Shown: positions 13,181 through 30,286 of the stretch, piece by piece | Numbering within the stretch: position 1 is the first letter of the stretch | How the letters are laid out: every line of letters begins with the position of its first letter | Assembly (NCBI GenBank): GCA_035546095.1 | Contig: DASZXB010000037.1 | Coordinates: 3,598 to 67,597, forward strand | DNA from: Verrucomicrobiia bacterium | GTDB lineage: Bacteria > Verrucomicrobiota > Verrucomicrobiia > Limisphaerales > UBA11358 | DNA length: 64,000 nt | Direction of reading: 5' to 3' | Position numbers and translations under genes: made by a program | The notes under the pieces: model-generated | The model's input: only the letters and a program-made list of their open reading frames with translations | Told to the model about the DNA's origin: nothing | Database searches by the model: none

Positions 13181-13197
13181 AGGGCGTGTTACGCCCT
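13181..13197. promoter_or_regulatory. perfect 7-3-7 palindrome, candidate XRE operator
   Basis: AGGGCGT-GTT-ACGCCCT lies in the 136 nt divergent intergenic region, about 35 nt upstream of the XRE gene start. Confidence 0.3.
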
Positions 13198-13231
13198 TTA
13201 TGTCAACTATGAAATTTTAGGGTAATAAAGG

Positions 13232-13468: not shown

Positions 13469-13469
13469 T

Positions 13470-15758: not shown

Positions 15759-15851
15759 AATTTTTTGACGATGGAGTTGTGGGGGTTTTACTTCAAGCGA
15801 CAGAGCGTGTCAAATTTCTCCGACATTCATTTCAGAGCGATGGCATCGTTT

Positions 15852-15929
15852 GGTGGGGCGAGCATCCTCGCGAGCCACGAACGGCTTAAGGCATGGCCAA
15901 GCCCGGCTCGCGGGGACGCTCGCCCCACC
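15852..15929. repeat. 78 nt GC-rich extended hairpin element
   Basis: GGTGGGGCGAGC-AT-CCTCGCGAGCC [28 nt loop] GGCTCGCGGGG-AC-GCTCGCCCCACC. There are 12 perfect outer pairs and 10 of 11 inner pairs. It sits in the 223 nt spacer between the cNMP-binding gene and qNOR. Confidence 0.75.
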
Positions 15930-15981
15930 GGCGGAAATCCAATGGATACCAGTGTGCCTTTGAAAAATCATTTGGGTTGGC

Positions 15982-16470: not shown

Positions 16471-16551
16471 GATAATATCTCCTTCACGTTTTTGTGCTAT
16501 GATGAAACGCCAGTCACGGCTGCAACTTAAAACAAAGCGCGCGCAAATACT

Positions 16552-16565
16552 TTGACCTGGGTCAA
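16552..16565. promoter_or_regulatory. FNR/Dnr-type operator TTGAC-N4-GTCAA
   Basis: TTGACCTGGGTCAA lies in the divergent spacer. A -10-like TAAGTT (minus strand, 16524-16529) sits ~29 nt from the box centre, which is class II spacing towards the cNMP-binding gene. The 19-mer TTGACYTGGGTCAAATCTT recurs at 23235. Confidence 0.6.
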
Positions 16566-16643
16566 ATCTTTGCCAATCACTGGAGCAAAAAATTTGACGG
16601 GGGCGGGTTGATTGCAAATATTGAGCCAAGAAGGAAACAATTG

Positions 16644-17102
16644 ATGCAACCAAGAATGGATTATGTGAAAGCGGCGCCGGACGGATACCAAGCCATAAGC
16701 GCGTTGGAAAGCTATGTGCGGCAAAGCGGCCTTGAACATTCCCTGCTGGAATTGGTCAAGACGCGTGCGTCGCAAATCAACGGCTGTGCCTTTTGCCTCG
16801 ACATGCACACTAGGGGCGCGCGCGCCGCCGGTGAAACCGAGCAGCGGCTTTACACGCTGTCGGCTTGGGAGGAAACGCCGTTCTTCACCGACCGCGAACG
16901 CGCCGCGCTGGCGTGGACGGAAGCCGTCACGCGCGTCGCCGACACGCATGTTCCCGACGATGTTTATGAGCGGGTTCGCCGGCAATTCACGGAGAAGGAA
17001 CTGGCCGACCTGACGCTGGCGATTGTGGCCATCAACGGCTGGAACCGGCTGTCCGTCGCTTTCCGCAAGGTGCCCGGCTTTTACCAGCCCACTAGGCCGT
17101 GA
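16644..17102 (+). CDS. carboxymuconolactone decarboxylase (AhpD-like) family protein
   Basis: LVKTRASQINGCAFCLDMHTRGARAAGETEQRLYTLSAWEETPFFTDRERAALAWTEAVT carries the CxxC-containing CMD/AhpD signature. ATG 16644 is preceded by AAGGAA. Confidence 0.85.
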   Translation: MQPRMDYVKAAPDGYQAISALESYVRQSGLEHSLLELVKTRASQINGCAFCLDMHTRGARAAGETEQRLYTLSAWEETPFFTDRERAALAWTEAVTRVADTHVPDDVYERVRRQFTEKELADLTLAIVAINGWNRLSVAFRKVPGFYQPTRP

Positions 17103-17209
17103 AGCAAAAATTTTGCCGCATAAAAGCCTTTTTCCCGACTCGTCAATGTCGGCAAAATCATTGAGGGAATTTTCGCTTCCCTCCACTCCATTGAAAAGAA
17201 TGGACGCGA

Positions 17210-19246
17210 TCAGGTAAAGCCCAGGCGATGCAATGTTTGATAAGCCACCAGCGCTGCGATGTAGGCCAGACCGCTCATGTAGGCGATCTGAAACAGCGGC
17301 CATTTCCACGAATTCGTCTCGCGCCGCACGACGGCGGTCGTCGAAAGACATTGCGCCGCCAGAATGTAAAACACGAGCAGGCTCGCGCACGTCGCCACGC
17401 TGAAAACCGGAGCGCCGTCCGAGCGTGTCGCGCGCCGCAGCGAATCGTAAAGCGAACCGCGATTGTTTTCCGCTGCGTCGCCGCCGACGCCATAGACAAT
17501 GGCCAGCGTCGAAACGATCACCTCACGCGCAGCGAATGAACTGACAATTCCAATTCCAATCTGCCAATCAAAGCCAAGCGGACGAATGGCTGGCTCAATC
17601 GCGCGGCCAATTTTTCCGGCGAAGGAATTTTCTAGGGAATTTTGCTGCGTCAGCCGGTCGGCGTCCGCGCGGATTTCGTCCGCCTTTTGCGCGTCACCGG
17701 ATTTTTCAAATTGCGCGGCTTGTTGCGTCATGGCGATGGCCGCCGCGGGCGGCGCGGATTTGGGATAATACGACAGTGCCCAGAGAATCAGCGAGACGGC
17801 CAGAATGATCGTGCCCGCCTGTTTTACGAAAATTTTCGCGCGGTCGAATGTGTGCAGCAGCGCGACGCGCAACGCGGGAATCCGGTATTGCGGCAGTTCA
17901 ATCATCAGCGGTTTACCGCCGCCGGGCAAAATCGTTTTGCGAAAAACCAGCGCGGCGCCCAGCGCGGCGGCGACGCCCGTCGCGTAAGCGCCGGTGAAAA
18001 TGGCGGCGGCTTTCAGCGGCGAATTGGGAAAAATCAGCGCCGTGACCATCGCATAAACCGGAATCCGCGCCGAACACGTCAGCAGCGGTGTGATCAAAAT
18101 GGTGACGAGCCGGTCGCGCGGATTTTCGATGACGCGCGCGGACATGATGGCAGGAATCGCGCAGGCGTGCGCCGAGAGCATCGGCACAAACGCCTTGCCC
18201 GGCAATCCAAATCGCCGCATGATTTTGTCCATCACAAACGCGGCGCGCGCGAGATAGCCGGTGTCTTCGAGCAGCGAGAGCGCGAAAAACAAAATGCAAA
18301 TCTGTGGCAGAAAAACGAGGATGCCGCCGACGCCGCCGGTGACGCCGTTGACCAGCAAACTTTGCAGATCGCCGGTGGAAATTTTTTCCGCGACCAATCC
18401 GCCAAGCGTGGCGAACAGATGGTCAATCAAATTCATCGGAATTTTCGCCGCCCAAAAAATCAGCGCGAACAGCGAAAGCATGACGAATAAGAAAACGGCG
18501 ACGCCGGCGACCGGATGCGTGAAAATTTTGTCCAATCTGTCCGTCCAAACGGAACGCTTGATGGCGCGCGCATCCAGAACGCGCGTGGAAATTTTTTCCG
18601 TCCAGTCGTAGCGCGCTTGAAACGCGCAGCCGGAACAGCCGGCGCAATTCAGTTTGAAATTGCCCGCCATTTCCGGCGTCGGAATTTTGGCGAGCCGCGT
18701 AATTTCATTTTTCAACTCGGAAACGCCCGAACCGTCGCGCGCGGAAATCGGAACGACGGCGCAGCCGAGTTCGTTCCGCAAGCGGGCAACGTCAATCCGA
18801 ATCTCGTCGCGCCGCGCCATGTCCATCATGTTCAGTGCGACGATGACGGGACGGTTCAATTCGAGAATCTGGCTGACGAGAAATAAATTGCGTTCGAGAT
18901 TGGTCGCGTCCACGACGATGAGCGCGGCATCCGGCGCAAGATTTTCCACGCCGCAGCGCAAGGCGTCGGCGGCGATTTTTTCCTCCGGTGACAAACCATC
19001 CAAACTGTAAAGTCCGGGCAAATCCACGACGACAATCTGTGCACCGCCGATTTGCAAGCGTCCAGTTCTGCGCTCGACGGTCGTGCCGGGAAAATTCGCG
19101 GTTTTTGCGCGCAGGCCGGTGAGCACGTTGAATAATGTGGTTTTGCCCGCATTTGGGTTGCCGACGAGCGCGAGCGTGAATTTTTTTTGCGCGCGCGATT
19201 TCGTTTGCGGTTCAATCACATTATCAGAGTGGTGACAATTGCTCAT
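17210..19246 (-). CDS. feoB: ferrous iron transporter FeoB
   Basis: N-terminal G-domain with GNPNAGKTTLFNVLTG, DLPG and NMMD motifs, followed by a polytopic membrane domain. 678 aa. Confidence 0.95.
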   Translation of the reverse strand: MSNCHHSDNVIEPQTKSRAQKKFTLALVGNPNAGKTTLFNVLTGLRAKTANFPGTTVERRTGRLQIGGAQIVVVDLPGLYSLDGLSPEEKIAADALRCGVENLAPDAALIVVDATNLERNLFLVSQILELNRPVIVALNMMDMARRDEIRIDVARLRNELGCAVVPISARDGSGVSELKNEITRLAKIPTPEMAGNFKLNCAGCSGCAFQARYDWTEKISTRVLDARAIKRSVWTDRLDKIFTHPVAGVAVFLFVMLSLFALIFWAAKIPMNLIDHLFATLGGLVAEKISTGDLQSLLVNGVTGGVGGILVFLPQICILFFALSLLEDTGYLARAAFVMDKIMRRFGLPGKAFVPMLSAHACAIPAIMSARVIENPRDRLVTILITPLLTCSARIPVYAMVTALIFPNSPLKAAAIFTGAYATGVAAALGAALVFRKTILPGGGKPLMIELPQYRIPALRVALLHTFDRAKIFVKQAGTIILAVSLILWALSYYPKSAPPAAAIAMTQQAAQFEKSGDAQKADEIRADADRLTQQNSLENSFAGKIGRAIEPAIRPLGFDWQIGIGIVSSFAAREVIVSTLAIVYGVGGDAAENNRGSLYDSLRRATRSDGAPVFSVATCASLLVFYILAAQCLSTTAVVRRETNSWKWPLFQIAYMSGLAYIAALVAYQTLHRLGFT

Positions 19247-19253
19247 AGCGTTT

Positions 19254-19514
19254 TCAAGTTTGCGCGCAATGTTCCGGCGCGCAGATTTCGACGCGGACGC
19301 GTGCGGCCAGTTCCGCCGAGAGGCCGAGCCGCGAATTGAAAACTTTGAGAATCAGCGGATCCCCGCCGCGCACCAATTCCACGCGGCGACCGGCGCAAAC
19401 GCCGAGCGTTTTCAATCGCTGAATTTCTTCGTCGTCCGTCGCGATGTCGCGGACGATGCCGCAAACGCGTGGCGGCAAATCGTTCAACCGGATGAATGGG
19501 CATGTCGCAGTCAT
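19254..19514 (-). CDS. feoA: FeoA family protein
   Basis: 86 aa SH3-like FeoA pattern (LNDLPPRVCGIVRDI...RLKTLGVCAGRRVELVRGGDPLILKV), located 8 nt upstream of feoB. Confidence 0.85.
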   Translation of the reverse strand: MTATCPFIRLNDLPPRVCGIVRDIATDDEEIQRLKTLGVCAGRRVELVRGGDPLILKVFNSRLGLSAELAARVRVEICAPEHCAQT

Positions 19515-19619
19515 TTTTTAATCAAGTCTGGCAAATCGGCGGATCCTCCGCTGTTGTTCGATTGCCAAAAGCCAGCCTCAAATTGCTCCTCCAAATTAGC
19601 GGTAAATTCGACGATTTCT

Positions 19620-19633
19620 TTGATTTGAGTCAA
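19620..19633. promoter_or_regulatory. FNR/Dnr-type operator TTGAT-N4-GTCAA
   Basis: TTGATTTGAGTCAA. A -10-like TAATTT (minus strand, 19593-19598) sits ~28.5 nt from the box centre and faces feoA. On the + side only a poorly spaced TACAAC (19662-19667) is present. Confidence 0.5.
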
Positions 19634-19709
19634 AACCTTGGCGCGGCGCTTGTGTCAGATTTACAACATGAGCGAAAATCTTCTGATTGATTTGACGTGG
19701 CAAAAAATT

Positions 19710-19838
19710 AACCACGGATGGACGCAGATGAGCACGGATTTTCAAGATGCAAATTTCACAAACCAGCATGGATTTAACCGGCGAAAAGTGAGCCTCCATT
19801 TGCTTTTTATCCGTGTCAGTCCGTGTTCATCCGTGGTT
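19710..19838. repeat. 129 nt CACGGAT-unit palindromic element
   Basis: AACCACGGATGGACGCAGATGAGCACGGAT ... ATCCGTGTCAGTCCGTGTTCATCCGTGGTT. Each arm has three ~10 nt-phased CRCNGAT units. The element ends 18 nt upstream of ATG 19856 and is followed by TTTCAATTCTTTTTT. Confidence 0.75.
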
Positions 19839-19855
19839 TCAATTCTTTTTTAATT

Positions 19856-20380
19856 ATGCCTGAAAAAATTGTGACCCTTGACGTTCGTGAAGACATTCGC
19901 AACGGGCGCGAACCGTTTTCAAAAATCATGTCCGCCGTCGCGGAATTGCACGCGGACGAAAATCTTTTACTGCTCGCGCCGTTTGAACCGAAGCCGCTGT
20001 TCGGCCTTTTGACTCGGCAAGGTTTTAATCATTTGGCGCGTGAAATGGAAAACGGCGATTGGGAAATTTTGTTTAGTAGGAGTCGAGGTGACGAAGCTCT
20101 GATTGAAAAACCGGAAATCCCAAAGCCAAAAACAGATCAGAGCCTCCTTACGTCGGCTCCTACAAAAATGATTGAAGTGGACGCGCGGGGACTCGAACCG
20201 CCGCAGCCGATGGTGAAAATTCTCGAAACGCTCGCGTCGCTGCCCCACGGCGCGGCCTTGCGCGCCCGCACCGACCGCCGCCCGATGCACCTTTACGCGC
20301 AACTCGAAGCACGCGGCTTCACTGGCCAAACCGAGGAACAAAACGATGGAAGTTTCCTTACCATTATCAAATCGCGTTGA
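19856..20380 (+). CDS. tandem DUF2249 domain protein (two domains joined by a repeat-encoded linker)
   Basis: Domain 1 is LDVREDIRNGREPFSKIMSAV...LLLLAPFEPKPLFGLL...GDWEILFSRS. Domain 2 is MIEVDARGLEPPQPMVKILETL...LRARTDRRPMHLYAQLEARGF. Both match the single-domain DUF2249 genes at 22099 and 28156. Confidence 0.8.
   Translation: MPEKIVTLDVREDIRNGREPFSKIMSAVAELHADENLLLLAPFEPKPLFGLLTRQGFNHLAREMENGDWEILFSRSRGDEALIEKPEIPKPKTDQSLLTSAPTKMIEVDARGLEPPQPMVKILETLASLPHGAALRARTDRRPMHLYAQLEARGFTGQTEEQNDGSFLTIIKSR
20076..20163. repeat. 88 nt palindromic element inside a CDS
   Basis: GTAGGAGTCGAGGTGACGAAGCTCTGAT [32 nt] ATCAGAGCCTCCTTACGTCGGCTCCTAC. 23 of 28 positions are complementary, or 25 of 28 with G-U pairs. 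One arm recurs at 38611-38631. Confidence 0.8.
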
Positions 20381-21746
20381 ACCGTCGAAGCGCGAAGCGT
20401 TGAAACCGAAAAATAATTCACCGGTTCAACCCTTCAATATTTCAACGGCGTCCATCGCCTTGCCGCTTTCATTCATCCTCGCCGGATTGCTCGCGCTTTT
20501 TACCGGCGCAAGCTGGCTCGTCCTCCAGCCGGAAATTTTAGCGGCTTATCATTACAACGCAAATGCCATCGCCGCGACACATTTGTTCGCGCTAGGCTGG
20601 CTGTGCAGCGTGGTCATGGGCGCGATGTATCAACTCGTGCCGGTCGCGCTGGAAACAAAATTGTTCAGCGAACGGCTCGCGAAAATTCAGTTCGTCTTTC
20701 ACATCGTTGGCTTCGTCGGAATGGTTTTGGCGTTTCGCGTTTGGAATATGAAATTCGTCGCCGCCTTCGGCTCAATTTTTGCCATCGGCGTCGCCTTGTT
20801 CATTTACAACGTCGCACGAACGCTGTTGCGAATTCCGAAATGGAACGTCATCGCCGCCGCCGTCGCGTCCGCGCTTGGCTGGATTTTGCTCACCGTCAGC
20901 GCCGGGCTTTTGATTGCGTCCGCAAAGACCGGCCACGCGAATTTCATGTTCCATTTCAATCCCATCGGCGCGATGCACGCGCACGCGCATTTGGGCACGC
21001 TGGGATTTTTCATCATGCTTATCGTCGGCGTATCTTACAAATTGATTCCGATGTTCACGTTGAGCGAAATTCAAAATCATCGCCGCGCGCTGGTATCCGT
21101 AATTTTGCTCAATGTCGGACTCGCCGGTTCGTTTGTTTCCATTTTGCTGCAACTCGTGGTCAAACCGCTGTTCGCGCTCATCATTGTCGCCGCGTTCGTG
21201 ATTTATGGCCGGGAAATGACGGCGATTTTGCGCGCGCGAAAACGCCGCGCGCTCGATTGGGGCGTAAGATATTTTTTGACGGCCATCGCGTTGCTCGCGC
21301 CGCTTTCAATTCTCGCGCTCATTTTGTCGTGGCCGAAACTGCCGCTGAATCCGTTCACCGGCCAGCTTGAAAATGTTTATGGCTTCGTCGCTTTTGTTGG
21401 CGTCATCTCGTTCGCGGTCATCGGGATGCTTTACAAAATCATCCCCTTTCTGGTGTGGTTTGGCATTTACAGCAAACACATTGGCTGCACGCAAGTGCCA
21501 GCGCTGGCGGAAATGGTTTCGGAAAAATTGCAAAGGCTCGGCTACGGGATTTTTCTCACGGCGCTGGCCGTGACCATTTTTGGAATTTTATTTTCAAACG
21601 CAATGGCCGTGCGAATTGGCAGCGCGTTTTTCGCTGCAAGTCTGACGACGCTTGCGCTCAATGTTGGAAAAATTCTGTCGCATTATTTTCAACCGAAACT
21701 TGCGCCGCTGGCCGCGCCAAAAAATTATGACCGGAACAAAAATTGA
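20346..21746 (+). CDS. 12-TM His-bearing membrane protein with internal 3x4-helix repeat (heme-copper-oxidase-subunit-I-like or NnrS-like architecture; family unassigned)
   Basis: 466 aa with about 12 hydrophobic helices. The motif G-x2-Y-x-[LI]-[VI]-P recurs in helices 2, 6 and 10 (THLFALGWLCSVVMGAMYQLVP; HAHAHLGTLGFFIMLIVGVSYKLIP; VYGFVAFVGVISFAVIGMLYKIIP). It overlaps the neighbouring genes by 35 and 20 nt. Confidence 0.8.
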   Translation: MEVSLPLSNRVEPSKREALKPKNNSPVQPFNISTASIALPLSFILAGLLALFTGASWLVLQPEILAAYHYNANAIAATHLFALGWLCSVVMGAMYQLVPVALETKLFSERLAKIQFVFHIVGFVGMVLAFRVWNMKFVAAFGSIFAIGVALFIYNVARTLLRIPKWNVIAAAVASALGWILLTVSAGLLIASAKTGHANFMFHFNPIGAMHAHAHLGTLGFFIMLIVGVSYKLIPMFTLSEIQNHRRALVSVILLNVGLAGSFVSILLQLVVKPLFALIIVAAFVIYGREMTAILRARKRRALDWGVRYFLTAIALLAPLSILALILSWPKLPLNPFTGQLENVYGFVAFVGVISFAVIGMLYKIIPFLVWFGIYSKHIGCTQVPALAEMVSEKLQRLGYGIFLTALAVTIFGILFSNAMAVRIGSAFFAASLTTLALNVGKILSHYFQPKLAPLAAPKNYDRNKN

Positions 21747-22044
21747 CGAAGCCGCCGTTCTCGAAACGCTGCACCAAATCATTGACCCGGAAATCGGTGT
21801 CAATATCGTTGACCTCGGTTTGATTTACGGCGTGGGCATCGCGGACGGAATGGTGCGCGTGAAAATGACGTTGACCACGCCCGGCTGCCCGATGCACGAC
21901 AGCATTTCTTGGGGCGTCAAAAACGCGCTGCTCCAGCTCGAAGGCGTCGACGACGCGGAAGTGGAAATTGTCTTCGATCCGCCGTGGCATCCGTCATTGA
22001 TGAGCGAACAGGCGCGCATCGCCTTGCGCGTCGGAAATTTTTAA
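21727..22044 (+). CDS. DUF59 / metal-sulfur cluster assembly factor (MIP18/SufT-like)
   Basis: LHQIIDPEIGVNIVDLGLIYGV...VKMTLTTPGCPMHD...VEIVFDPPWHPSLMSEQAR is the canonical DUF59 pattern. Confidence 0.85.
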   Translation: MTGTKIDEAAVLETLHQIIDPEIGVNIVDLGLIYGVGIADGMVRVKMTLTTPGCPMHDSISWGVKNALLQLEGVDDAEVEIVFDPPWHPSLMSEQARIALRVGNF

Positions 22045-22098
22045 CCAAAACAAAACATAAAAAACACAAACCAAAATCAAATTCCCGCCGACAAAATC

Positions 22099-22362
22099 AT
22101 GGATGTTCGTCCGATTCCGTGTTCCATCAAACATGGCCAGATCATCCAAAAATGGCTCGACCTCGCCGTCGGCGATTATTTCGTGCTACTCAACGACCAC
22201 GACCCGGTGCCACTGTATTATCAATTCGCCGCCGAATGGCCGCAGGCGTTTTCGTGGGAACATTTTAAACGCGGGCCGGATGAATTTCTCGTGAAAGTCA
22301 CGAAACAAAAATCGCCCGCAAAAAAGGCCGAAGCAGAAGCCGCCGGTTGCGGCAGCCATTGA
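22099..22362 (+). CDS. DUF2249 domain protein
   Basis: 87 aa: MDVRPIPCSIKHGQIIQKWLDLAVGDYFVLLNDHDPVPLYYQFAAEWPQAFSWEHF. Confidence 0.75.
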   Translation: MDVRPIPCSIKHGQIIQKWLDLAVGDYFVLLNDHDPVPLYYQFAAEWPQAFSWEHFKRGPDEFLVKVTKQKSPAKKAEAEAAGCGSH

Positions 22363-22363
22363 A

Positions 22364-23176
22364 ATGAAAACGGCAGCGACCGCTTTCAGGACTGTTTCCG
22401 CGCGCAAAATCATCAAATTGATTTTGCCGAAAGAACACGGAAGTTGGTCGCTCGCGCTGGAGCCGGTTATGCTCGGATTGCTGGTTGCGCCGTCGGCAGC
22501 GGGCAGCGCGCTGGCCGTCGCCGCGCTCGCGGGATTTTTTTTGCGGCGACCGCTGAAATCATTGTTTTGCGAACCATCCGCCGCGCATCGTCAATGGATG
22601 ATTTTCTGCGTGGTCGTTTTAATCATCGTTGCAATTGCCGGCTTGTGGGCGGCGGCGAAATTCGTCGGCGCGGAAAATCTCTGGCCGTTGATTCCAGCGG
22701 CGCTGGCCGGACTCGCGTTTGCATGGTTCGATTCGCGGAACGAAGCACGCGCGGAAGCGGCGGAACTGGCGGGCGCGATTGCATTTGGCATCCTGCCGGC
22801 GGCGTTCGGCGCACTCGCAGGCTGGAGCGCAATGGCATCGGTCGCGCTGGCTTTGGTGATGTTGGTTCGTTCCGTGCCGACGGTGATGTTCGTGCGGACT
22901 TACATGCGACTGAAAAAAGGTCGAACGACGACGCGCGTTCCTGCGTTAATTGCCGCCGGCGCGGGATTGCTGCTTACGATTGCCCTCGTCCTCACCCGGC
23001 TCGCGCCGTGGGCTGCGGCGATGTTTGCATTTTTGATTGCTGTGCTGACTTTTGGTTTGCTCGGCGACCATCGTCCTCGACTTGCCGCCAAAACAGTTGG
23101 GCTGATTGAAATGACTTTGGGCGCGACGATGGTTTTGACTTTGGCCGTCGCGTGGAAATTTTTTCAACAGCAATAA
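22364..23176 (+). CDS. YwiC-like family membrane protein
   Basis: N-terminal LPKEHGSWSLALEPVMLGLLVAP signature, followed by about 8 TMs. It begins 1 nt after the preceding stop codon. Confidence 0.8.
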   Translation: MKTAATAFRTVSARKIIKLILPKEHGSWSLALEPVMLGLLVAPSAAGSALAVAALAGFFLRRPLKSLFCEPSAAHRQWMIFCVVVLIIVAIAGLWAAAKFVGAENLWPLIPAALAGLAFAWFDSRNEARAEAAELAGAIAFGILPAAFGALAGWSAMASVALALVMLVRSVPTVMFVRTYMRLKKGRTTTRVPALIAAGAGLLLTIALVLTRLAPWAAAMFAFLIAVLTFGLLGDHRPRLAAKTVGLIEMTLGATMVLTLAVAWKFFQQQ

Positions 23177-23234
23177 GACGTTTAATATATAAGTAAAACT
23201 TAATAATTCAATAATTGATAAATAGTTAAACTTA

Positions 23235-23248
23235 TTGACTTGGGTCAA
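23235..23248. promoter_or_regulatory. FNR/Dnr-type operator TTGAC-N4-GTCAA with class II -10
   Basis: TTGACTTGGGTCAA. GATAAT at 23271-23276 lies 29.5 nt from the box centre, and ATG 23304 follows. The box and its flank match the 16552 site at 18 of 19 positions. Confidence 0.7.
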
Positions 23249-23303
23249 ATCTTCTTTCCGGCAGTCATCCGATAATTCTACTGCAATTAAAAAAATTGTG
23301 GTT

Positions 23304-23738
23304 ATGAACAACGACATCCTGTCATCGGACAAAGCGGAAACCCCCGGGCCATCGCCGCAAACCCCCGCCGTTGTTTATGCCTGCTCCGGCTGCTCGGACG
23401 CGGGTGAAATCGCCGATCGCGTTGCGCGGCAACTCACGCGCGAAGGCGCAGCGCAAATGTCCTGTCTCGCCGGAATCGGCGGGCGCGTGAAAAGCCTCGT
23501 CGTCAAGGCCGAAAAAGCCGAGCGCATTTTGGTCGTGGACGGTTGTCCGCTGAATTGCGCGGCGCACACGCTTCGGCTCGCGGGCTTTGAAAAATTCGAG
23601 CATCTCGAATTGCACAAAATCGGCATCCGCAAAGGCGCGTGCCCGGCGACGGATGAAAAAATTTCCGCCGGTGTCGCGGCGGCTAAAGGAATTCTTTCGC
23701 GCGAACAAACCATCAATGAAATCTGCCCTGAAATATGA
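23304..23738 (+). CDS. DGC-domain putative zinc-binding protein
   Basis: VVYACSGCSDAGEIADRVAR...ILVVDGCPLNCA carries the Cys pattern and DGC motif of the DGC domain family. Confidence 0.8.
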   Translation: MNNDILSSDKAETPGPSPQTPAVVYACSGCSDAGEIADRVARQLTREGAAQMSCLAGIGGRVKSLVVKAEKAERILVVDGCPLNCAAHTLRLAGFEKFEHLELHKIGIRKGACPATDEKISAGVAAAKGILSREQTINEICPEI

Positions 23739-25156
23739 AAAATAATTGCAACCGTAAAAAAATTCTTACCGGCGCACTCGCGTTAAGCGCCGCCGCCGCG
23801 TTGGCGCAACAAAAACCGTTCACGCAAGCGGGCACGGCCCAACCGCCGACATTGCCGCCGTTGCAGACCACGAACGCACCCGCCGCGGCAACGGGCGTGA
23901 GCACAAATGCGCCACTATTCAACAATTCGTTTGATAAATTTTTCAACGGCGAAATTCCCAGCGCCATCGCCAAAGGAAAATTTAATTTGGATGCGCGGCT
24001 TCGCTACGAGCAAGCGGATGAAGAGGGCGTTTCCGGCGTCACAAAAAATTCCTACGCGCCAACGTTGCGCACGATGTTCGGCTACACGACCGCGCCGCTT
24101 TACGGATTTCAGGGAATGCTTGAAGGCTTGAATGTCACGGCGTTCGGCGGGCAAAATAATTACAACGCCGCCGGTTCAAATGGCCAAGGCCGACGGCCGG
24201 TTGTGGCCGATCCGCCGTTGACGCGGCTCGATCAAGCGTGGTTGGGCTGGAATTACACGAACTATTTTTTCATCAAGGGCGGCGAGCAACGCATCAATCT
24301 GGACAATCAACGTTTCGTCGGCGATTCCAATTGGCGTCAGAACATTCAGACGTTTGATGCTGTCAGTCTCGGCAGCGAGCCTCTTCCCGGATTGAATTTT
24401 TATTACGCCTACCTTTGGGATGTTCATCGCGTTTTCGGAAACGTGAGCGGATTGCCCGCGGCGAACACGGATTTTGATTCGCGCTCGCATTTGATCAACA
24501 TCTCGTATTCCGGCTGGAAATACGGCACGTTCACCGGCTACAGCTATTTGCTCGACTTGCGCAATTTGGCCGGCGACGCCAATTCCTGCGAAACGTTCGG
24601 TGGCACTTTCGCTGGCAACGCGCCTATCACCGATAAAATCGCCGCCGATTATCGCGCGGAATTTGCGTATCAAAAAAATTGGGCCGATAGCCCGCTGCGT
24701 TACGACGCGACGTATTACAATCTCGAAGGCGGCTTGAACATCAAACCCATTGCGTTCGGCGGCGGCTACGAAGCCCTCGGCAGCGGCGCAAATTCCGGCA
24801 CGGGCGGCGGGCGCGCATCATTTCGCACGCCGCTGGCCACGCTTCACGCGTTCAACGGCTGGGATGATGTTTTTCTGACGACACCCGCGAATGGCCTCGA
24901 CGATTTATACAGCTACTTTCAAGTCACTTTGCCCGCGCAAATTCCCGTGCGGTTTGTGTTTCATAAATTCGACGCGGATTCCGGCGACGGCGATTACGGC
25001 AACGAGTTTGACGTCATGGCGTCCAAAAAATTCGGCAAGCACTGGAGCGCGCTGGTCAAATACGCCTATTTCCGGGGACAAGACGCGGCCGCGCCGTCCA
25101 TCGCCGGCAATGTGGACATCCAAAAATTCTGGGCGCAGGTGGAATTTACTTTTTGA
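23735..25156 (+). CDS. outer-membrane beta-barrel porin (alginate-export-family-like)
   Basis: Signal peptide, an LDARLRYEQADEEG-type opening strand, alternating amphipathic strands and a C-terminal aromatic residue (VEFTF). It has an ATGA overlap with the DGC gene. Confidence 0.65.
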   Translation: MKNNCNRKKILTGALALSAAAALAQQKPFTQAGTAQPPTLPPLQTTNAPAAATGVSTNAPLFNNSFDKFFNGEIPSAIAKGKFNLDARLRYEQADEEGVSGVTKNSYAPTLRTMFGYTTAPLYGFQGMLEGLNVTAFGGQNNYNAAGSNGQGRRPVVADPPLTRLDQAWLGWNYTNYFFIKGGEQRINLDNQRFVGDSNWRQNIQTFDAVSLGSEPLPGLNFYYAYLWDVHRVFGNVSGLPAANTDFDSRSHLINISYSGWKYGTFTGYSYLLDLRNLAGDANSCETFGGTFAGNAPITDKIAADYRAEFAYQKNWADSPLRYDATYYNLEGGLNIKPIAFGGGYEALGSGANSGTGGGRASFRTPLATLHAFNGWDDVFLTTPANGLDDLYSYFQVTLPAQIPVRFVFHKFDADSGDGDYGNEFDVMASKKFGKHWSALVKYAYFRGQDAAAPSIAGNVDIQKFWAQVEFTF

Positions 25157-25186
25157 ACCGGCAAAAAATTGAACCAAGAAAAATAT

Positions 25187-26692
25187 ATGAAAACGAATGT
25201 TTTGAAAATCAGCCTCGTGAGCCTTCTGTTGACGGTTGCAGTGATTTGTCCTTCAAAATCGGAAACGCCAATCGCCGTCACTCCTGAAATTATTGGCAGC
25301 GAAAACGCCGTCTTGACCGACGCGCCGGACGTGCCGCCACCCATCACACGCACGCACGCGACGAAAGTCATTGTAAATCTCGAAGTCAAGGAAGTCACCC
25401 GGCGACTCGCCGACGGCGTGGATTACACCTTTTGGACTTTTGGCGGCAGCGTGCCGGGGAAATTCATTCGGGTGCGCGAAAGCGACGAAGTGGAAATTCA
25501 TCTGGCCAACGCGCCGGACAGTAAAATGCCGCACAACATTGATTTGCACGCCGTCAGCGGGCCGGGCGGCGGCGCGGCGGCGTCATTTGTCGCGCCGGGA
25601 CATGAATCGCAATTCACCTTTCGCGCGCTCAATCCCGGACTTTACGTTTATCATTGCGCGACCGCACCCGTCGGAATGCACATCGCCAACGGAATGTATG
25701 GTTTGATTCTCGTCGAACCAACCAACGGCCTGCCGAAAGTAGACAAGGAATTTTACGTCATGCAAGGCGAATTTTACACCGCTGGGAAATTCGGCGATCC
25801 CGGCTTGCAACCGTTCGACCTGGACAAGGCGGTTGACGAGCGTCCGGCTTACGTCGTTTTCAACGGCGCGGTTGGTTCGCTCACGGACAGCAACGCGCTC
25901 ACGGCGCGCGTCAGCGAAAAAATCCGTTTTTTCGTCGGCAATGGCGGGCCGAATCTCGTGAGTTCATTTCACATCATTGGAAATATATTCGATAACGTTT
26001 ATGAAGAAGGCGGCACGATTGCGAATCAGCATAATGTGCAAACGACGCTGGTTCCGGCGGGTGGCGCGGCGATGGTGGAATTCACGCCCAAAGTTCCCGG
26101 CACTTACACTTTTCTCGACCATTCCATTTTGCGTGCCTTCAACAAAGGCTGCATCGGGCAATTGAAAGTGACCGGCGACGCGAACTGCGCGATTTTTTCC
26201 GGCAAACAAAGCGACACCATTTTTACCGAACCAGAAACCAATTCCGTTCCGGCGGTCAAAATTGAGCCGGTGGCCGCGAAGCCGGCGGAAAATTCCCAAT
26301 CCATTCCGGCAAACATGATCCCGGCCGTCGCAACGCAAATGGAATCGGGTAGACAGGTTTATCAACAAATCTGTTTCGTTTGCCATCAACCGAACGGCCT
26401 CGGCGTGCCGAATCAAATCCCGCCGCTGGCCGGCTCGGATTTTCTCGCGCATGAAAAAGTGGAATTGATTCGCACGTTGATTCAAGGACGCTCCGGCGAA
26501 ATTGTCGTCAATGGGAAAAAATTCAGCGGCATCATGGTTCCGCAGGCCAATCTGACCGACGATCAAATCGCCAACGTGCTGACGTTTGTGCGCAACAACT
26601 GGAACAATTCCGGCGACGCGGTGACGCCGGACGAAGTCCGCGCCGCGCGCGCCGGAGCGAAGCCGGTGGCCGCCGCAAATTCATTTGAATGA
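25187..26692 (+). CDS. nirK: copper-containing nitrite reductase NirK with C-terminal cytochrome c domain
   Basis: The HNIDLHAV type 2 Cu histidines and the YVYHCATAPVGMHIANGMYG His/Cys/His/Met ligand set are present. The C-terminal extension carries CFVCHQPNG (CxxCH) and a later Met. Confidence 0.95.
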   Translation: MKTNVLKISLVSLLLTVAVICPSKSETPIAVTPEIIGSENAVLTDAPDVPPPITRTHATKVIVNLEVKEVTRRLADGVDYTFWTFGGSVPGKFIRVRESDEVEIHLANAPDSKMPHNIDLHAVSGPGGGAAASFVAPGHESQFTFRALNPGLYVYHCATAPVGMHIANGMYGLILVEPTNGLPKVDKEFYVMQGEFYTAGKFGDPGLQPFDLDKAVDERPAYVVFNGAVGSLTDSNALTARVSEKIRFFVGNGGPNLVSSFHIIGNIFDNVYEEGGTIANQHNVQTTLVPAGGAAMVEFTPKVPGTYTFLDHSILRAFNKGCIGQLKVTGDANCAIFSGKQSDTIFTEPETNSVPAVKIEPVAAKPAENSQSIPANMIPAVATQMESGRQVYQQICFVCHQPNGLGVPNQIPPLAGSDFLAHEKVELIRTLIQGRSGEIVVNGKKFSGIMVPQANLTDDQIANVLTFVRNNWNNSGDAVTPDEVRAARAGAKPVAAANSFE

Positions 26693-26701
26693 AATCCGAT
26701 T

Positions 26702-27535
26702 ATGAATTTTAACGCAAAGACACAAAGACGCGGAGGCACGGGGATTGGAAAAATTTTCCTTTGCTGCGTCCTCGCCTCTTTGCGCCTTGGCGTTGATTCT
26801 TTCGCCGCCACAAACACGAGCGTCGTGCCCGCCGGCATGGTTCAAATTCCCGCCGGCGTTTATCGTCCGCTGCTGCGCGCGAAAACCGACGCGGCAGAAA
26901 TTCCCGTGAAAAGTTTTTTGCTCGACATCGAGCCGGTTTCCAACGGCGAATTTTTGGAATTCGTCCGCGTCCATCCGCAATGGCAACGCTCAAACGTCGC
27001 GCGCCTTTTTGCCGACGAATCGTATTTGAAAAATTGGGCGGGTGATTTGGAGTTGGGGAAAAATGCGCCGTCGAACGCGCCGGTCACGTTTGTCTCATGG
27101 TTCGCGGCGAAAGCCTACGCGCAATGGAAACACGAGCGGCTGCCGACCATCGCCGAATGGGAATTGGCTGCAAATGCCAGCACGACGCGTACCGACGGCG
27201 AAAATGCTCCGCAATTCAAAGCGGAAATCCTGAAGTGGTATTGCGAATCGTCCGCGACAGAATTTCTGCCGGTCGGCAACGGTGGAAAAAATTTTTACGG
27301 CGTCCGCGATTTGCACGGCCTGGTTTGGGAATGGGCCGCCGATTTTAATTCCGCGATTTTATCCGGCGATTCGCGCGCCGACGGCGCCGACGCGAAATTG
27401 TTTTGCGGCGCGGGCGCGCAAAGCGCACGCGCCGTGGACGATTATCCGGCGTTCATGCGATTTGCTTTTCGCAGCAGTCTCAAGGCGGATTATTGCATCC
27501 ACAATTTGGGCTTCCGCTGCGCCAAAGATTTATGA
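26702..27535 (+). CDS. nirV: NirV-type formylglycine-generating-enzyme (SUMF1) family protein
   Basis: FGE-sulfatase fold motifs (VSWFAAKAYAQW, NFYGVRDLHGLVWEW, GFRCAKD). It sits immediately downstream of nirK, as described for nirV. Confidence 0.8.
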   Translation: MNFNAKTQRRGGTGIGKIFLCCVLASLRLGVDSFAATNTSVVPAGMVQIPAGVYRPLLRAKTDAAEIPVKSFLLDIEPVSNGEFLEFVRVHPQWQRSNVARLFADESYLKNWAGDLELGKNAPSNAPVTFVSWFAAKAYAQWKHERLPTIAEWELAANASTTRTDGENAPQFKAEILKWYCESSATEFLPVGNGGKNFYGVRDLHGLVWEWAADFNSAILSGDSRADGADAKLFCGAGAQSARAVDDYPAFMRFAFRSSLKADYCIHNLGFRCAKDL

Positions 27536-28146
27536 AAACAAAACTCTCAACCGCCATCGTGGCCGCGCTTTTTTTCCAACTTGGAATTTCGGGCGCGACA
27601 GAAACCAATTCCATTCATCGCTCGTGCTGCGCGATGAATTTGTCCGCAAAAAAATTCACCGACCAATCGCTTTATCAAGTCGAATCGGTTTGGACAACGG
27701 ATGCGCAAAAACAAATCAAACTGGGCGCGCTCGCGGGAAAACCGCAGGTCGTTTTGATGTTTTACTCGCGCTGCACGACGGCCTGCCCGATTTTGGAAAA
27801 TGAATTGCGGCAGATTGAAGCCGCGCTGCCGCCGGAAACGCGCGCGAAAACCGGCTTTACCTTGATTTCGTTTGACAGCGAGCGTGACACGCCGGCGGCG
27901 CTCGCCGAATATCGGAAAGTCTGGAATTTGCCGGAAAATTGGACGCTGCTTTCCGGCCAGCCGGACGACGTTTTGGAACTGGCCGCGTTGCTCGGAATCC
28001 AATTCAAAAAATCCAGCGATGGCGAAATCGCGCACTCGAACGTCATCACGCTTTTGAACGCGCAAGGCGAAATTGTTTTTCGGCAAACCGGATTGAACGC
28101 CGGCGCGGATGAAATGGTTCGCCGGATTGAACAAATTGTGGAATAA
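27532..28146 (+). CDS. SCO/SenC family copper chaperone (thioredoxin fold)
   Basis: Signal/anchor MKTKLSTAIVAALFF, a VLMFYSRCTTACP CxxxC copper motif and a downstream His (EIAHSNVITLL). It has an ATGA overlap with nirV. Confidence 0.85.
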   Translation: MKTKLSTAIVAALFFQLGISGATETNSIHRSCCAMNLSAKKFTDQSLYQVESVWTTDAQKQIKLGALAGKPQVVLMFYSRCTTACPILENELRQIEAALPPETRAKTGFTLISFDSERDTPAALAEYRKVWNLPENWTLLSGQPDDVLELAALLGIQFKKSSDGEIAHSNVITLLNAQGEIVFRQTGLNAGADEMVRRIEQIVE

Positions 28147-28155
28147 TCCATCGTC

Positions 28156-28410
28156 ATGCCGCCGCTGAACCAGTTCAAACGCTTTGACGTTCGCGATTTG
28201 ATTCGTCGCGGCATTGAACCGTTTCCTGAAATCCGCCGGCGCGTGGACGCGCTCAAGCCGGACGAAGGATTGATTGTCGTCGCGCCGTTTTTGCCGTCGC
28301 CGCTCGTGGAAATTTTGAGCAGTGAGGGATTTACATCGAAAGTGGAGCGCGGCGGCGGCGCGGACTGGCTGGTTTATTTTTGGCGCGAAACCGATTTGAC
28401 CTCACCATGA
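28156..28410 (+). CDS. DUF2249 domain protein
   Basis: 84 aa: FDVRDLIRRGIEPFPEIRRRVDALKPDEGLIVVAPFLPSPLVEILSSEGF...ADWLVYFWRE. Confidence 0.8.
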   Translation: MPPLNQFKRFDVRDLIRRGIEPFPEIRRRVDALKPDEGLIVVAPFLPSPLVEILSSEGFTSKVERGGGADWLVYFWRETDLTSP

Positions 28411-29123
28411 GCGCTGTCACCAATTACAAAACGATTGCGTTGATCAACACGCTGCGCAGTTGCCAGCTTTTCACGGGACTGCCGCAACTGGATTTGGAAA
28501 AAATCGCGGACGTGACGGTTTTGAAATCGCTGGAAAAGGACGATTATCTTTTTCGCGAAGGCGATCCGGCGCACGGCTTTTATGTCGTTCAACGCGGCGC
28601 GGTTAACGTGCATCGCGTCAGCGCCACGGGCAAGGAGCAGGTCATTCACGTTTTTCGCGCGGGCGATTCGTTTGCGGAAGTCGCGCTGGCTTCCGAACGC
28701 GGCTACCCCGCCGATGCGCGCGCCATCGAACCGACGCAGGTTTTGCTCGTGCAAAAGGCCGGGATTTTGGAATTGCTCAAACGCCAGCCGGAACTCGCGC
28801 TGCGAATGCTCGGCTCGATGAGCAGCCATTTGCGCGTGCTGGTTGGACAGCTTGAAGATTTGACGCTGAAAGACGTCGAAACGCGGCTGGCGAACTGGCT
28901 GGTGAAGCGTTGCGCGAATCCGCAAAGCGAAACGTCGGTGAAAATTGAATTGGCGATGACCAAGCGGGTTCTTGCGGCGGAACTCGGCACGGTGAGCGAA
29001 ACGTTTTCGCGCACGCTCGCAAAATTTCGGGAGCAAAAACTGATTTCAGTAAAAGGCAAAACCATCACGGTTTTGTCGCCGATAAAATTGCGTGCGCTGT
29101 TGCGGCGTAATTTGGGCGAATGA
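28407..29123 (+). CDS. Crp/Fnr family transcriptional regulator, Dnr/NnrR-like
   Basis: cNMP-type beta-roll (YLFREGDPAHGFYVVQRGAVNVHR) plus an HTH with the E--SR recognition motif (VSETFSRTLAKF) that reads TTGAT half-sites. It lacks the N-terminal Cys cluster of O2-sensing FNR. It has an ATGA overlap with the upstream gene. Confidence 0.9.
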   Translation: MSAVTNYKTIALINTLRSCQLFTGLPQLDLEKIADVTVLKSLEKDDYLFREGDPAHGFYVVQRGAVNVHRVSATGKEQVIHVFRAGDSFAEVALASERGYPADARAIEPTQVLLVQKAGILELLKRQPELALRMLGSMSSHLRVLVGQLEDLTLKDVETRLANWLVKRCANPQSETSVKIELAMTKRVLAAELGTVSETFSRTLAKFREQKLISVKGKTITVLSPIKLRALLRRNLGE

Positions 29124-29131
29124 CAGATGGG

Positions 29132-30148
29132 TTAGAAAAATTTCTGCTGATTTCCTGTTGCGGCTTTCAATCCTAATTTTTGGTAGCTCAATTCCGTTGC
29201 CACACGACCTTGCGGCGTGCGGTTCAGGAATCCTTCCATGATTAAATACGGCTCATAGACTTCCTCAATCGTGTCCGGCTCTTCGCCGACGGCGACGGCG
29301 AGCGAATTGACGCCGACGGGTCCGCCGCCGAATTTCACAATGACGGTTTCCAAAATGCGCTTATCCATTTCGTCCAGACCGTTTTGGTCAATTTCCAACA
29401 TCGCCAGCGCTTTGTCGGCGATGGGTGCAGTGATTTTGCCGTCGTGCTTCACTTGCGCGTAATCGCGGACGCGGCGGAGCAGATTGTTCGCGATGCGCGG
29501 CGTGCCGCGGCTGCGGTGCGCGATTTCCAGCGCGCCGGATTTTTCGATTTCCACGTTCAGTAAATTCGCCGAGCGAATGATAATCGCCTGCAATTGTTCG
29601 GCGTGATAGTAATCCAATCGTTCGCGCATTCCAAAACGCGTGAGCAGCGGCGCGCTCAACAAACCGCTGCGCGTGGTCGCGCCAATCAAAGTGAAGCGCG
29701 GCAAATTTAATCTGACGCTGCGCGCGTTCGGTCCTTGGTCAATGATGATGTCGAGTTTGAAATCTTCCATCGCCGGATACAGATATTCCTCGATGGTTTT
29801 TTGCAGGCGATGAATTTCGTCAATGAACAGCACGTCGCCTTCTTCGAGATTGGTCAACAGTCCGGCGAGGTCGCCAGCCTTTTCAATCGTCGGGCCGCTG
29901 GTGCTTTTGAGATTTGTGCCCATCGCTTTGGCCAAAATGTTGGCGAGCGTGGTTTTGCCGAGACCGGGCGGGCCGTTGAGTAAAATGTGGTCGAGCGGTT
30001 CTTTTCTTTTTTTCGCGGCGGCGACGGAAATTTCCAATCGCTCTTTGACTTTTGGCTGGCCGGTGAATTCGGAAAAGAGCGACGGGCGCAGCGTCATTTC
30101 CAACGCCGCGTCCGGTTTATTCAAGGTGGAAACCGCGCGTTCGGACAT
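29132..30148 (-). CDS. ruvB: Holliday junction branch migration helicase RuvB
   Basis: [19 protein letters not shown], Walker [10 protein letters not shown], Walker [10 protein letters not shown], and [16 protein letters not shown]. Confidence 0.95.
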
Positions 30149-30286
30149 CGCGGGAAAGATTGCGGAAACCGTGCGCAGCGGCAAGCCGCGATTCCGCCGA
30201 CCATAGAAAACACATGAAATAGGGCACTTTTTTCAATAAAAAATGCTGGAAAATCGGCTGGACATCAGGCAAGCTGCGCGCCCTTT

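Follow-up and report, generated by a model that had tools for sequence, protein, structure and literature searches.

We examined a 64,000-nucleotide (nt) stretch of a metagenome-assembled genome (MAG) of a Verrucomicrobiia bacterium (GenBank assembly GCA_035546095.1, contig DASZXB010000037.1, positions 3,598 to 67,597; hereafter the window), in which an island at 19856–29123 carries a copper nitrite reductase (NirK) operon together with genes of the DUF2249, DUF59 and haem-copper oxidase (HCO) families. Six-frame open reading frames (ORFs) and inspection of start codons gave 12 genes on the + strand (Table 1), where the original prediction, made from the DNA letters, had counted eleven. The layout that it described was otherwise accurate: all genes are co-oriented and fall into two blocks, the junctions within blocks range from -35 to +54 nt, and there are three ATGA overlaps (23735, 27532 and 28407). 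An AT-rich spacer of 127 nt (23177–23303) separates the blocks. Pfam and NCBIfam bore out the domains that had been named (DUF2249, DUF59, YwiC, DGC, NirK, NirV, SCO and Crp/Fnr), the spread of four DUF2249 domains over three genes, and the textbook parts, namely NirK with a C-terminal cytochrome c, NirV and SCO. The island consists of three units: a cytoplasmic and inner-membrane core operon (tandem DUF2249, an HCO-like protein with 12 transmembrane (TM) helices, DUF59 and a single DUF2249); a periplasmic nitrite-reduction cassette (porin, NirK–cytochrome c, NirV and SCO); and an overlapping, apparently translationally coupled DUF2249–Crp/Fnr regulator pair. An Rfam search of 13000–30500 gave no match. 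Scans for sigma-70 promoters and for terminators returned hits at chance level only, so the operon boundaries are drawn solely from the gaps and the FNR-type boxes described below.

Table 1. Genes, boxes and other features of the island and of the region upstream of it (window coordinates)
Feature	Position	Strand	Remarks
qNOR, quinol-dependent nitric oxide (NO) reductase	13470–15758	-	Pfam NorB_cytochrome_c-like 1.9e-52, COX1 3.7e-50
Crp-like cNMP-binding-domain-only protein, 162 aa, no helix-turn-helix	15982–16470	-	Pfam cNMP_binding only
FNR/Dnr-type box TTGACCTGGGTCAA	16552–16565		Between divergent cNMP(-qNOR) and AhpD-like genes; exact TTGAY-N4-RTCAA
AhpD-family (carboxymuconolactone decarboxylase-like) protein	16644–17102	+	NCBIfam ahpD_dom 59 bits, cut-off 27.8
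feoAB ferrous-iron transporter	17210–19514	-	FeoB 17210–19246, FeoA 19254–19514
FNR/Dnr-type box TTGATTTGAGTCAA	19620–19633		Between divergent feoAB and DUF operon; exact TTGAY-N4-RTCAA
129-nt element	19710–19838		30-nt imperfect terminal inverted repeats, 19710–19739 and 19809–19838, 77% complementary
Tandem DUF2249 protein, 174 aa	19856–20380	+	Pfam DUF2249, 2 stretches
12-TM HCO-superfamily homologue (HCOH), 466 aa	20346–21746	+	Overlaps previous gene, -35 nt
DUF59 / SufT-like Fe-S assembly-factor domain protein, 105 aa	21727–22044	+	Junction -20 nt
Single DUF2249 protein (middle)	22099–22362	+	Junction +54 nt
YwiC-like polytopic membrane protein	22364–23176	+	Junction +1 nt
FNR/Dnr-type box TTGACTTGGGTCAA	23235–23248		Exact match, centred 62 nt before ATG 23304
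DGC-domain protein	23304–23738	+	Behind 127-nt spacer
Putative outer-membrane beta-barrel (AlgE / Alginate_exp-like), signal peptide	23735–25156	+	ATGA overlap
NirK–cytochrome c	25169 (TTG) or 25187 (ATG) to 26692	+	+12 nt from 25169
NirV (FGE-sulfatase-domain protein), signal peptide	26702–27535	+	Junction +9 nt
SCO1/SenC copper chaperone	27532–28146	+	ATGA overlap with nirV
Third DUF2249 gene (single domain)	28156–28410	+	Junction +9 nt
Crp/Fnr-family regulator	28407–29123	+	ATGA overlap with third DUF2249 gene

Apart from the textbook parts, the island had been thought impossible to assign to a described pathway, the 12-TM protein included. We found that this protein is a homologue of the HCO superfamily (Pfam COX1, 41 bits; cut-off 34.8), and an association of DUF2249 with HCO homologues is already in the literature, as paraphrased in PMC11218638. 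COX1 was the only Pfam profile to match at E <= 0.01, and the NnrS profile (PF05940) did not match. An AlphaFold2 model, computed from a 60-sequence alignment of homologues 25–55% identical to the window protein, had a pLDDT of 93.4, a pTM of 0.91 and twelve long helices. Foldseek aligned the model with CcoN of cbb3, CyoB of bo3, subunit I (CoxA) of aa3 and NorB at TM-scores of 0.63–0.70 and about 12% identity. The protein has the HCO fold, that is, 12 TM helices in three pseudo-symmetric four-helix units with a structural match to subunit I and NorB, and the motif G-x2-Y-[QK]-L-[IV]-P recurs three times in it, after helices 2, 6 and 10.

The metal ligands of this fold are largely gone. The canonical six histidines lie in TM helix (TMH) 2 (low-spin haem), in TMH6 and the His-His pair of TMH7 (CuB/FeB), and in the His-x-His of TMH10 (both haems). 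Only H79 (TMH2) and H213 (TMH6) were invariant in 60 diverse members, and H215, also in TMH6, was kept in 75%. Profile-to-PDB alignments match His79 to the histidine that ligates haem in helix 10 of CcoN, and to its symmetry mates. No His-His pair of TMH7 was conserved among the 60 members, and TMH10 reads Tyr345-x-Phe347 where oxidases and NO reductases (NORs) have His-x-His. Because four of the six metal-ligand histidines of catalytic HCOs and NORs are lost, a binuclear haem/Cu or haem/Fe site cannot form, and with only two invariant histidines kept the protein is not a canonical oxidase or NO reductase. Residues were placed from sequence and secondary structure rather than from coordinates. 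By the positive-inside rule applied to the modelled helices, both termini are probably cytoplasmic; His79 in helix 2 and His213 in helix 6 would each stand some seven residues short of the periplasmic helix end, and R298, R300, D304, K364, W371 and Y375, the best conserved polar residues, would be on the cytoplasmic side. The family comprises 2133 clusters at 50% identity (E <= 1e-3). On one metagenome contig (L086), a 151-aa COX1-matching protein is encoded directly after DUF59 (10672–11127); it may be a homologue made of a single four-helix 'evolutionary unit' standing beside the 12-TM form.

The tandem protein matched DUF2249 (PF10006) at 2.7e-34 (117.3 bits), the middle single-domain protein at 1.9e-19 (69.7 bits) and the third at 2.3e-13 (50.2 bits), all above the cut-off of 29.5 bits. 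The C-terminal domain of the tandem protein also matches Pfam TusA (8.3e-09), and the GL-x-CP-x-P cysteine motif of TusA is replaced by GLEPPQP, which is conserved across 54 homologues; the sulfur-carrier cysteine is therefore absent. In the middle protein Cys8, His12 and Asp33-His34-Asp35 are conserved (57 homologues). The DUF59 protein matched Pfam FeS_assembly_P above its cut-off (2.1e-22, 79.6 bits) and fell below the NCBIfam cut-offs of TIGR02945 (SUF_assoc; 108.7 against 143.4) and TIGR03406 (103.4 against 202.6); its conserved cysteine sits in the motif TTPGCPM. Read from their sequences, the tandem DUF2249, DUF59, both single DUF2249 and DGC proteins have no hydrophobic leader, whereas NirK, NirV, SCO and the porin each have one. 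PDB sequence searches with the tandem DUF2249 and DGC proteins gave no meaningful match, and a literature search found no paper joining DUF59 with nirK.

The core recurs widely. We scanned one genome per GTDB species with an eight-sequence alignment as the query and obtained 492 matches, of which the best 80 loci, all Verrucomicrobiota-like, were kept and their ORFs searched with the window proteins. Forty-three of these species-level loci were fully flanked, with at least 6 kb upstream and at least 8 kb downstream. All 43 had the HCO-like gene and DUF59, 42 the tandem DUF2249 and 36 the single DUF2249; an upstream cupin gene was present in 30, a Crp gene within the flanks in 29 and the third DUF2249 in 24. 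The remaining families were less frequent: NirK occurred at 16 loci, NirV and SCO at 15 each, DGC at 11, YgbA_NO at 7, qNOR at 6, YwiC and hemerythrin at 3 each, and the porin at one (L003). NirK or qNOR lay nearby, defined as within 10 kb of the core, at 18 of the 43 loci and neither did at 25; we estimate that chance would give such linkage in well under 1%. The original prediction had staked its case on linkage of the DUF block to nirK or nor genes elsewhere, and this was found at those 18 loci, in Bacteroidota and, with nos genes, in Ignavibacteria (see below). The linkage between the core and N-oxide genes is thus real but facultative. The cores with neither NirK nor qNOR had heterogeneous, unrelated flanks and no hidden common partner: among 95 neighbouring ORFs the top family, Alginate_exp, appeared three times and NrfA once.

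Gene order showed how the island is put together. A frequent order in relatives is cupin, tandem DUF2249, HCO-like, DUF59 and single DUF2249, then hemerythrin, YgbA or DGC, and finally the DUF2249–Crp pair; hemerythrin, the NO-stimulated YgbA_NO protein and DGC alternate at one position in Verrucomicrobiota. In relatives with this order, the NirK–NirV–SCO cassette is divergent or absent. In the window and five other loci, YwiC, DGC and NirK–NirV–SCO stand between the core and the DUF2249–Crp pair, and only L003 among those five has the porin. This locus, from an independent MAG, has the same gene order as the window at 88–94% nucleotide identity across the whole region. The locus is a mosaic of units: NirV and SCO track NirK (15 loci each, against 16 with NirK), and the third DUF2249 tracks Crp. 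We also observed paralogous cores, two or three per MAG (L013/L022/L040, L027/L033/L081, L076/L077, L023/L070, L008/L072 and L052/L075); these copies of cupin, tandem DUF2249, HCO-like, DUF59 and single DUF2249 stand beside NirK in some cases and alone in others, which suggests functional diversification of the core within one genome.

More distant loci were reached through family representatives and not through the 80-locus scan. Three Bacteroidota loci (L083, L087 and L088) carry a DUF2249–ScdA_N–hemerythrin gene, a DUF1858–DUF2249 gene, an HCO-like gene whose product is 28% identical to the window protein, and DUF59, abutting SCO, NirV, NirK–cytochrome c and an Alginate_exp porin. The first of these genes has the RIC/YtfE architecture fused to DUF2249, and the Alginate_exp-family gene lies upstream of NirK–c, in the same position as the porin of the window. 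At two of the three loci (L083 and L087) a cNOR-like gene pair lies a few kilobases away. The core and the porin–NirK–NirV–SCO cassette have been joined in parallel in two phyla. An Ignavibacteria locus (L084) combines a nos cluster, Rrf2, tandem DUF2249, HCO-like, DUF59 and cupin, with a suf operon nearby, and an Opitutae locus (L089) has cupin, tandem DUF2249, HCO-like and DUF59 alone, with an exact FNR-type box 48 nt upstream. Of two metagenome contigs, one (L085) has the trio of tandem DUF2249, HCO-like and DUF59 only, with no N-oxide gene, and the other (L086) has the trio with Crp, hemerythrin, cytochrome c and the single-unit COX1-like gene mentioned above.

The regulator that closes the island contains the Pfam domains cNMP_binding and HTH_Crp_2, the recognition-helix sequence SETFSR (E-x2-SR, the type that reads TTGAT-N4-ATCAA) and a single N-terminal cysteine. 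Because the FNR cysteine cluster is missing, it probably belongs with the Dnr/NnrR kind rather than with FNR proper, and it is predicted to respond to NO. The earlier naming of a Dnr/NnrR-like protein at the operon end agrees with the domains, recognition helix and cysteines, but no NCBIfam equivalog reached its cut-off. The third DUF2249 gene was adjacent to a Crp gene, usually overlapping it, in 32 of its 34 occurrences, and the ATGA overlap in the window suggests that its translation is coupled to that of the regulator gene.

Three exact intergenic TTGAY-N4-RTCAA boxes of the FNR/Dnr type precede the two blocks of the island and the upstream genes (Table 1). The claim that a nearly identical operator precedes the qNOR and the stand-alone cNMP-binding protein upstream was correct as to both genes and the operator: the 19-nt stretches TTGACCTGGGTCAAATCTT at 16552 and TTGACTTGGGTCAAATCTT at 23235 agree at 18 of 19 bases, with TTGACYTGGGTCAAATCTT in common. 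The box at 23235 is likely to mark the promoter of the second operon. At up to one mismatch, the window holds 22 sites, compared with 9.9 +/- 3.0 in shuffled sequence, and none of 100 shuffles reached 22. Two further exact boxes (38399 and 53468) fall within long ORFs, and we regard them as chance matches. Across 78 related loci (1.26 Mb) there were 162 exact boxes, where the information content of the pattern predicts about 5, and roughly three quarters of the 162 lay no more than 400 nt upstream of cupin, tandem DUF2249, DGC, NirK, YgbA or qNOR genes. An exact box was found within 350 nt upstream of 45 of 67 core operons, before the cupin or tandem DUF2249 gene, and related loci also have boxes ahead of DGC or NirK genes. 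Of the 24 fully flanked cores that have neither NirK nor qNOR nearby, 16 have such a box, which makes the core a target of an FNR-box regulator independently of NirK. The shared boxes support co-regulation of the core and the N-oxide genes. At about 21 loci (L003–L082) the centre of the box lies exactly 42 nt before the first core gene, counted to the earliest start codon in its longest ORF. If the starts are called correctly, so unusually fixed a spacing would leave room for a very short 5' leader or none; otherwise the starts are mis-called.

Within the cassette, NirK scored 355.4 bits against TIGR02376 (cut-off 296.3), its translation shows the Cu-ligand motifs HNIDLH and YHCA...H...M, and its C terminus is a class I cytochrome c (Pfam Cytochrom_C) with the motif CFVCH. 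NirV matched Pfam FGE-sulfatase at 2.8e-34 (119.4 bits), and the SCO protein matched SCO1-SenC at 1.5e-15 (57.8 bits) and has both CTTAC (CxxxC) and AHSN with the distal histidine. NirK with a C-terminal cytochrome c is known in Verrucomicrobia, as are nirK–nirV pairs (PMC4770552). The porin was a weaker call than had been claimed: it has a signal peptide, but its Alginate_exp score of 22.8 bits lies under the cut-off of 25.2; its positional counterparts in Bacteroidota are annotated as Alginate_exp.

Of the two genes between the core and the cassette, the one for the DGC protein gave a product that matched PF08859 at 5.4e-28 (97.6 bits; cut-off 27), its six cysteines are conserved in 18 homologues, and homologue alignment backs the start at ATG 23304. 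YwiC matched PF14256 at 62.5 bits (cut-off 25). YwiC genes occurred at 6 of the 80 loci, every one with NirK or qNOR, and followed directly after the single DUF2249 gene; the carriers were L003, L004, L017, L020, L029 and L072. In Bacillus subtilis, ywiC lies between the nar operon and fnr. YwiC may thus be a real but unstudied accessory membrane protein of N-oxide respiration; that it is a further HCO homologue was ruled out (hhalign probability 1.4%). YwiC and DGC are lineage-specific add-ons to the island, and within Verrucomicrobiota the porin and YwiC are rare ones.

Upstream of the island, the qNOR gene is 94% identical in nucleotides to its L003 orthologue. A GAAGGAG ribosome-binding site precedes ATG 16470 of the cNMP-only gene, and the order qNOR, cNMP-only, AhpD recurs in L072. 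A gap of 223 nt separates the cNMP-only gene from qNOR, so their co-transcription is uncertain; the cNMP-only protein may bind a ligand as a partner of the Dnr-type regulator, or may act as its anti-activator. FeoB has the Pfam domains FeoB_N, Gate and FeoB_C, and the FeoA reading frame translates to a FeoA-like protein that NCBIfam did not match; the feoAB region is conserved in L003. The box at 19620–19633 is common to the divergent feoAB genes and the core, its centre being 112 nt away from the start of feoA and 229 nt away from that of the tandem DUF2249 gene, and L003 has the same layout of feoAB and box; iron uptake may be co-regulated with the N-oxide genes. In relatives, L003 included, a cupin gene of about 130 aa lies directly upstream of the tandem DUF2249 gene. 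In the window, 147 nt (19709–19855) stand in place of L003 9209–9513, the body of that gene; only its first 70 nt or so remain, and tblastn detected no cupin gene in the window. The 129-nt element in this place is present in a single copy in the window and looks like a miniature inverted-repeat transposable element (MITE). At about 10 of the 43 loci (for example L001 and L002), the module is flanked by a divergent MarR-family regulator and a CLC-type chloride/anion channel with CBS domains, a pair that may bear on the handling of nitrite, nitrate or other anions. In the window the only CLC homologue is a distant one, at about 9195–10760 (-).

Taken together, the island appears to be N-oxide-responsive, under a regulon defined by FNR-type boxes (Dnr/NnrR type), and built from three units of separate evolutionary history. 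The NirK operon of this soil Verrucomicrobium is spliced into a widely conserved module, centred on a reduced relative of the respiratory HCOs, that most likely helps the cell to sense or survive the NO that it makes itself. We favour, at slightly better than even confidence, the explanation that the module provides NO damage control and sensing alongside N-oxide respiration. In this scheme NirV and SCO would mature NirK, which a dedicated outer-membrane channel might supply with substrate; NirK would make NO, and qNOR would remove it. His79 (TMH2) and His213 (TMH6) of the HCO-like protein would ligate a single b-type haem close to the periplasmic side, where it would meet the NO made by NirK, and the conserved cytoplasmic loops of the protein (R298/R300/D304 and K364/W371/Y375) would work with the DUF2249 and DUF59 proteins. 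Together these proteins would restrict the harm that NO does to iron and Fe-S centres in the cytoplasm, or mend it, and the Dnr-type regulator would be tuned by the third DUF2249 protein. Roles in NO sensing and in the protection or repair of iron centres are suggested by the partners that recur across the loci: RIC-type ScdA_N–hemerythrin fusions, free hemerythrin, YgbA, DUF59, and Rrf2 and Dnr-type regulators. The published findings on DUF2249 proteins of Thermus (PMC6282519) and Haloferax (PMC11218638), given below, agree with this. On this reading the module is neither a second NO reductase nor a Cu/Fe assembly line for periplasmic enzymes.

Several points weigh against this explanation. 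Haem binding by H79 and H213 is predicted from alignment only, and contact of the HCO-like protein with its DUF2249 and DUF59 partners is likewise a prediction. Because NirK and qNOR are both missing within 10 kb of 25 of the 43 cores, and any N-oxide gene from one contig (L085), the primary signal could be oxygen limitation or another stress that acts through an FNR-type regulator. Single-haem proteins such as P450nor and flavohaemoglobin can carry out NO chemistry, so a catalytic role is possible as well.

Among the alternatives, a signal relay has a modest chance of being right. In such a relay the HCO-like haem protein would be a membrane sensor of NO (or O2), DUF2249 adaptors would pass its state to the Crp/Dnr-type regulator, and the output would be transcription. 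The near-constant DUF2249–Crp adjacency and the Crp genes in the flanks of 29 of 43 cores fit this model, Dnr-type regulators have no sensory Fe-S cluster and so need a cofactor or partner, and the position of the core behind the presumed box of the regulator would close an autoregulatory loop. In Thermus, DrpA and DrpB alter the levels of DnrS and DnrT and make expression independent of nitrate (PMC6282519), but the double mutant loses enzyme activity too and not regulation alone. A relay also leaves DUF59 and the RIC and hemerythrin fusions hard to fit, 14 of 43 cores have no Crp within 10 kb, and the Ignavibacteria core is paired with Rrf2. We consider it unlikely that the HCO-like protein is instead a new minimal NO-consuming enzyme, similar to a reductase or dioxygenase, that takes electrons from cytoplasmic partners and serves as a back-up or alternative to qNOR. 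The HCO/NOR fold with conserved histidines at haem-ligand positions would suit such an enzyme, NirK is often linked to the core without a NOR within 10 kb (NirK at 16 and qNOR at 6 of 43 loci), and single-haem enzymes that convert NO exist. However, with four of six ligands gone (the TMH7 His-His, and TMH10 with Tyr345/Phe347) there is no binuclear site, the operon conserves no cytochrome c, quinol site, flavoprotein or other redox partner, and the window already contains a complete qNOR.

The original prediction had proposed that the DUF block is dedicated to assembly, repair or trafficking of the Cu and Fe centres of periplasmic NirK and NOR, or else that it is an NO-detoxifying accessory system. 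The second proposal is still viable. The first has the physical linkage to NirK, NirV and SCO in its favour, together with several putative metal-binding proteins (the DUF59 cysteine, the six cysteines of DGC and the Cys, His and Asp residues of DUF2249) and the adjacent feoAB. We nevertheless judge it very unlikely as regards the periplasmic centres, because the soluble DUF proteins have no export signals, which NirK, NirV, SCO and the porin do have, and because NirK is missing within 10 kb of most cores; it is NirV and SCO, rather than the core, whose occurrence follows that of NirK, and many organisms that have no such genes have an active NirK (PMC4770552). Chance juxtaposition or mis-assembly, a concern with any single MAG, is refuted to the point of near impossibility by the recurrence of the synteny in L003 and in many other assemblies and phyla.

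The preferred explanation, NO damage control and sensing, can be carried one step further. The trio of tandem DUF2249, HCO-like and DUF59 proteins might form a phylum-spanning membrane complex in which a relic oxidase haem site detects or consumes NO and TusA-fold DUF2249 adaptors couple it to the rescue of Fe-S and iron centres and to direct control of haem-less Dnr-type regulators. We regard this fuller version as speculative and rather improbable; if true, the complex would be a new pathway of NO signalling and defence, and would link MAPEG-like four-helix units functionally to respiratory oxidases. NirK-type denitrifiers of Verrucomicrobiota and Bacteroidota are abundant in soils, many of them without a complete pathway, and how they cope with their own NO affects the emission of NO and N2O. 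By the cluster and species counts given above, the core is large and widespread, and it lies inside an N-oxide regulon. The locus and its Bacteroidota parallel are therefore an entry point to the roles of HCO-homology proteins and DUF2249 domains, to how Dnr-type regulators receive the NO signal, and to which accessory genes (NirV, SCO and the porin) belong to NirK.

We compared the island with systems already described. HCOH proteins, NnrS among them, were reportedly described by Pei, Li, Kinch and Grishin in 2014 (Protein Sci 23:1220) as having two conserved histidines, a single haem at the most, and a genomic setting of denitrification or NO genes. NnrS is a membrane protein that contains haem and belongs to the NnrR and NorR regulons (PMC3345576); Bartnikas reportedly described it as such in 2002. 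The association of DUF2249 with the HCO superfamily is credited to Pei et al. 2014 in a paraphrase in PMC11218638, so that HCO homologues with DUF2249 neighbours have, on that account, been known since 2014. The window protein shares with HCOH proteins the 12 TM helices in three four-helix units, the HCO fold, the two conserved histidines and the context of DUF2249 and denitrification or NO genes, the three-unit organization being the one reportedly described in 2014. It differs from NnrS in having no Pfam NnrS match, and the present loci add its fixed partners (tandem DUF2249 upstream and DUF59 downstream) and its FNR-box control across Verrucomicrobiota.

The Thermus thermophilus pair DrpA (DUF2249) and DrpB resembles the island in that a small DUF2249 protein from a denitrification island, itself under Dnr-type control, affects both the amounts of the Dnr regulators and how active an Fe-S-containing N-oxide reductase is, the double mutant making nitrate reductase protein with little activity (PMC6282519). 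By contrast, the Thermus pair lies downstream of the nar operon with no HCO-like or DUF59 gene described, and DrpA is reported to be periplasmic and proposed to be a nitrate sensor (PMC6282519), whereas the DUF2249 proteins of the window have no export signal. In Haloferax mediterranei, DUF2249 genes likewise lie beside nirK and nor under a shared promoter motif, and all four were strongly induced under denitrification (log2FC 3.2 to 8.7; PMC11218638). That cluster is archaeal, with another regulator and motif, and no HCO-like or DUF59 partner is reported for it (PMC11218638). The di-iron repair proteins RIC/YtfE/ScdA/DnrN/NorA share membership of NO regulons. The first core gene of Bacteroidota has their domains, and Verrucomicrobiota relatives have a hemerythrin gene at the position that YwiC, DGC and the NirK cassette take up in the window; neither a hemerythrin nor an ScdA_N domain is encoded in the window. 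SufT and other DUF59 maturation factors have the same fold family and conserved cysteine, but the window protein scores under the SUF_assoc and SufT cut-offs, and its gene stands beside one for an HCO-like membrane protein, not beside sufBCD. In nirK–nirV operons under NnrR/Dnr control, of the Rhodobacter sphaeroides type, NirK is also followed by NirV behind an FNR-type box, with a Crp/Fnr regulator that has no cysteine cluster (PMC4770552; Jain and Shapleigh 2001, cited there). The window adds DGC and the porin upstream and SCO and the DUF2249–regulator pair downstream, and its operon is inserted inside the core–regulator arrangement of relatives. Beyond these known systems, the new features are the fixed core of three to four genes, its FNR-box control across Verrucomicrobiota, the tight pairing of DUF2249 with Crp (32 of 34) and the parallel fusion with a porin–NirK–NirV–SCO cassette in two phyla.

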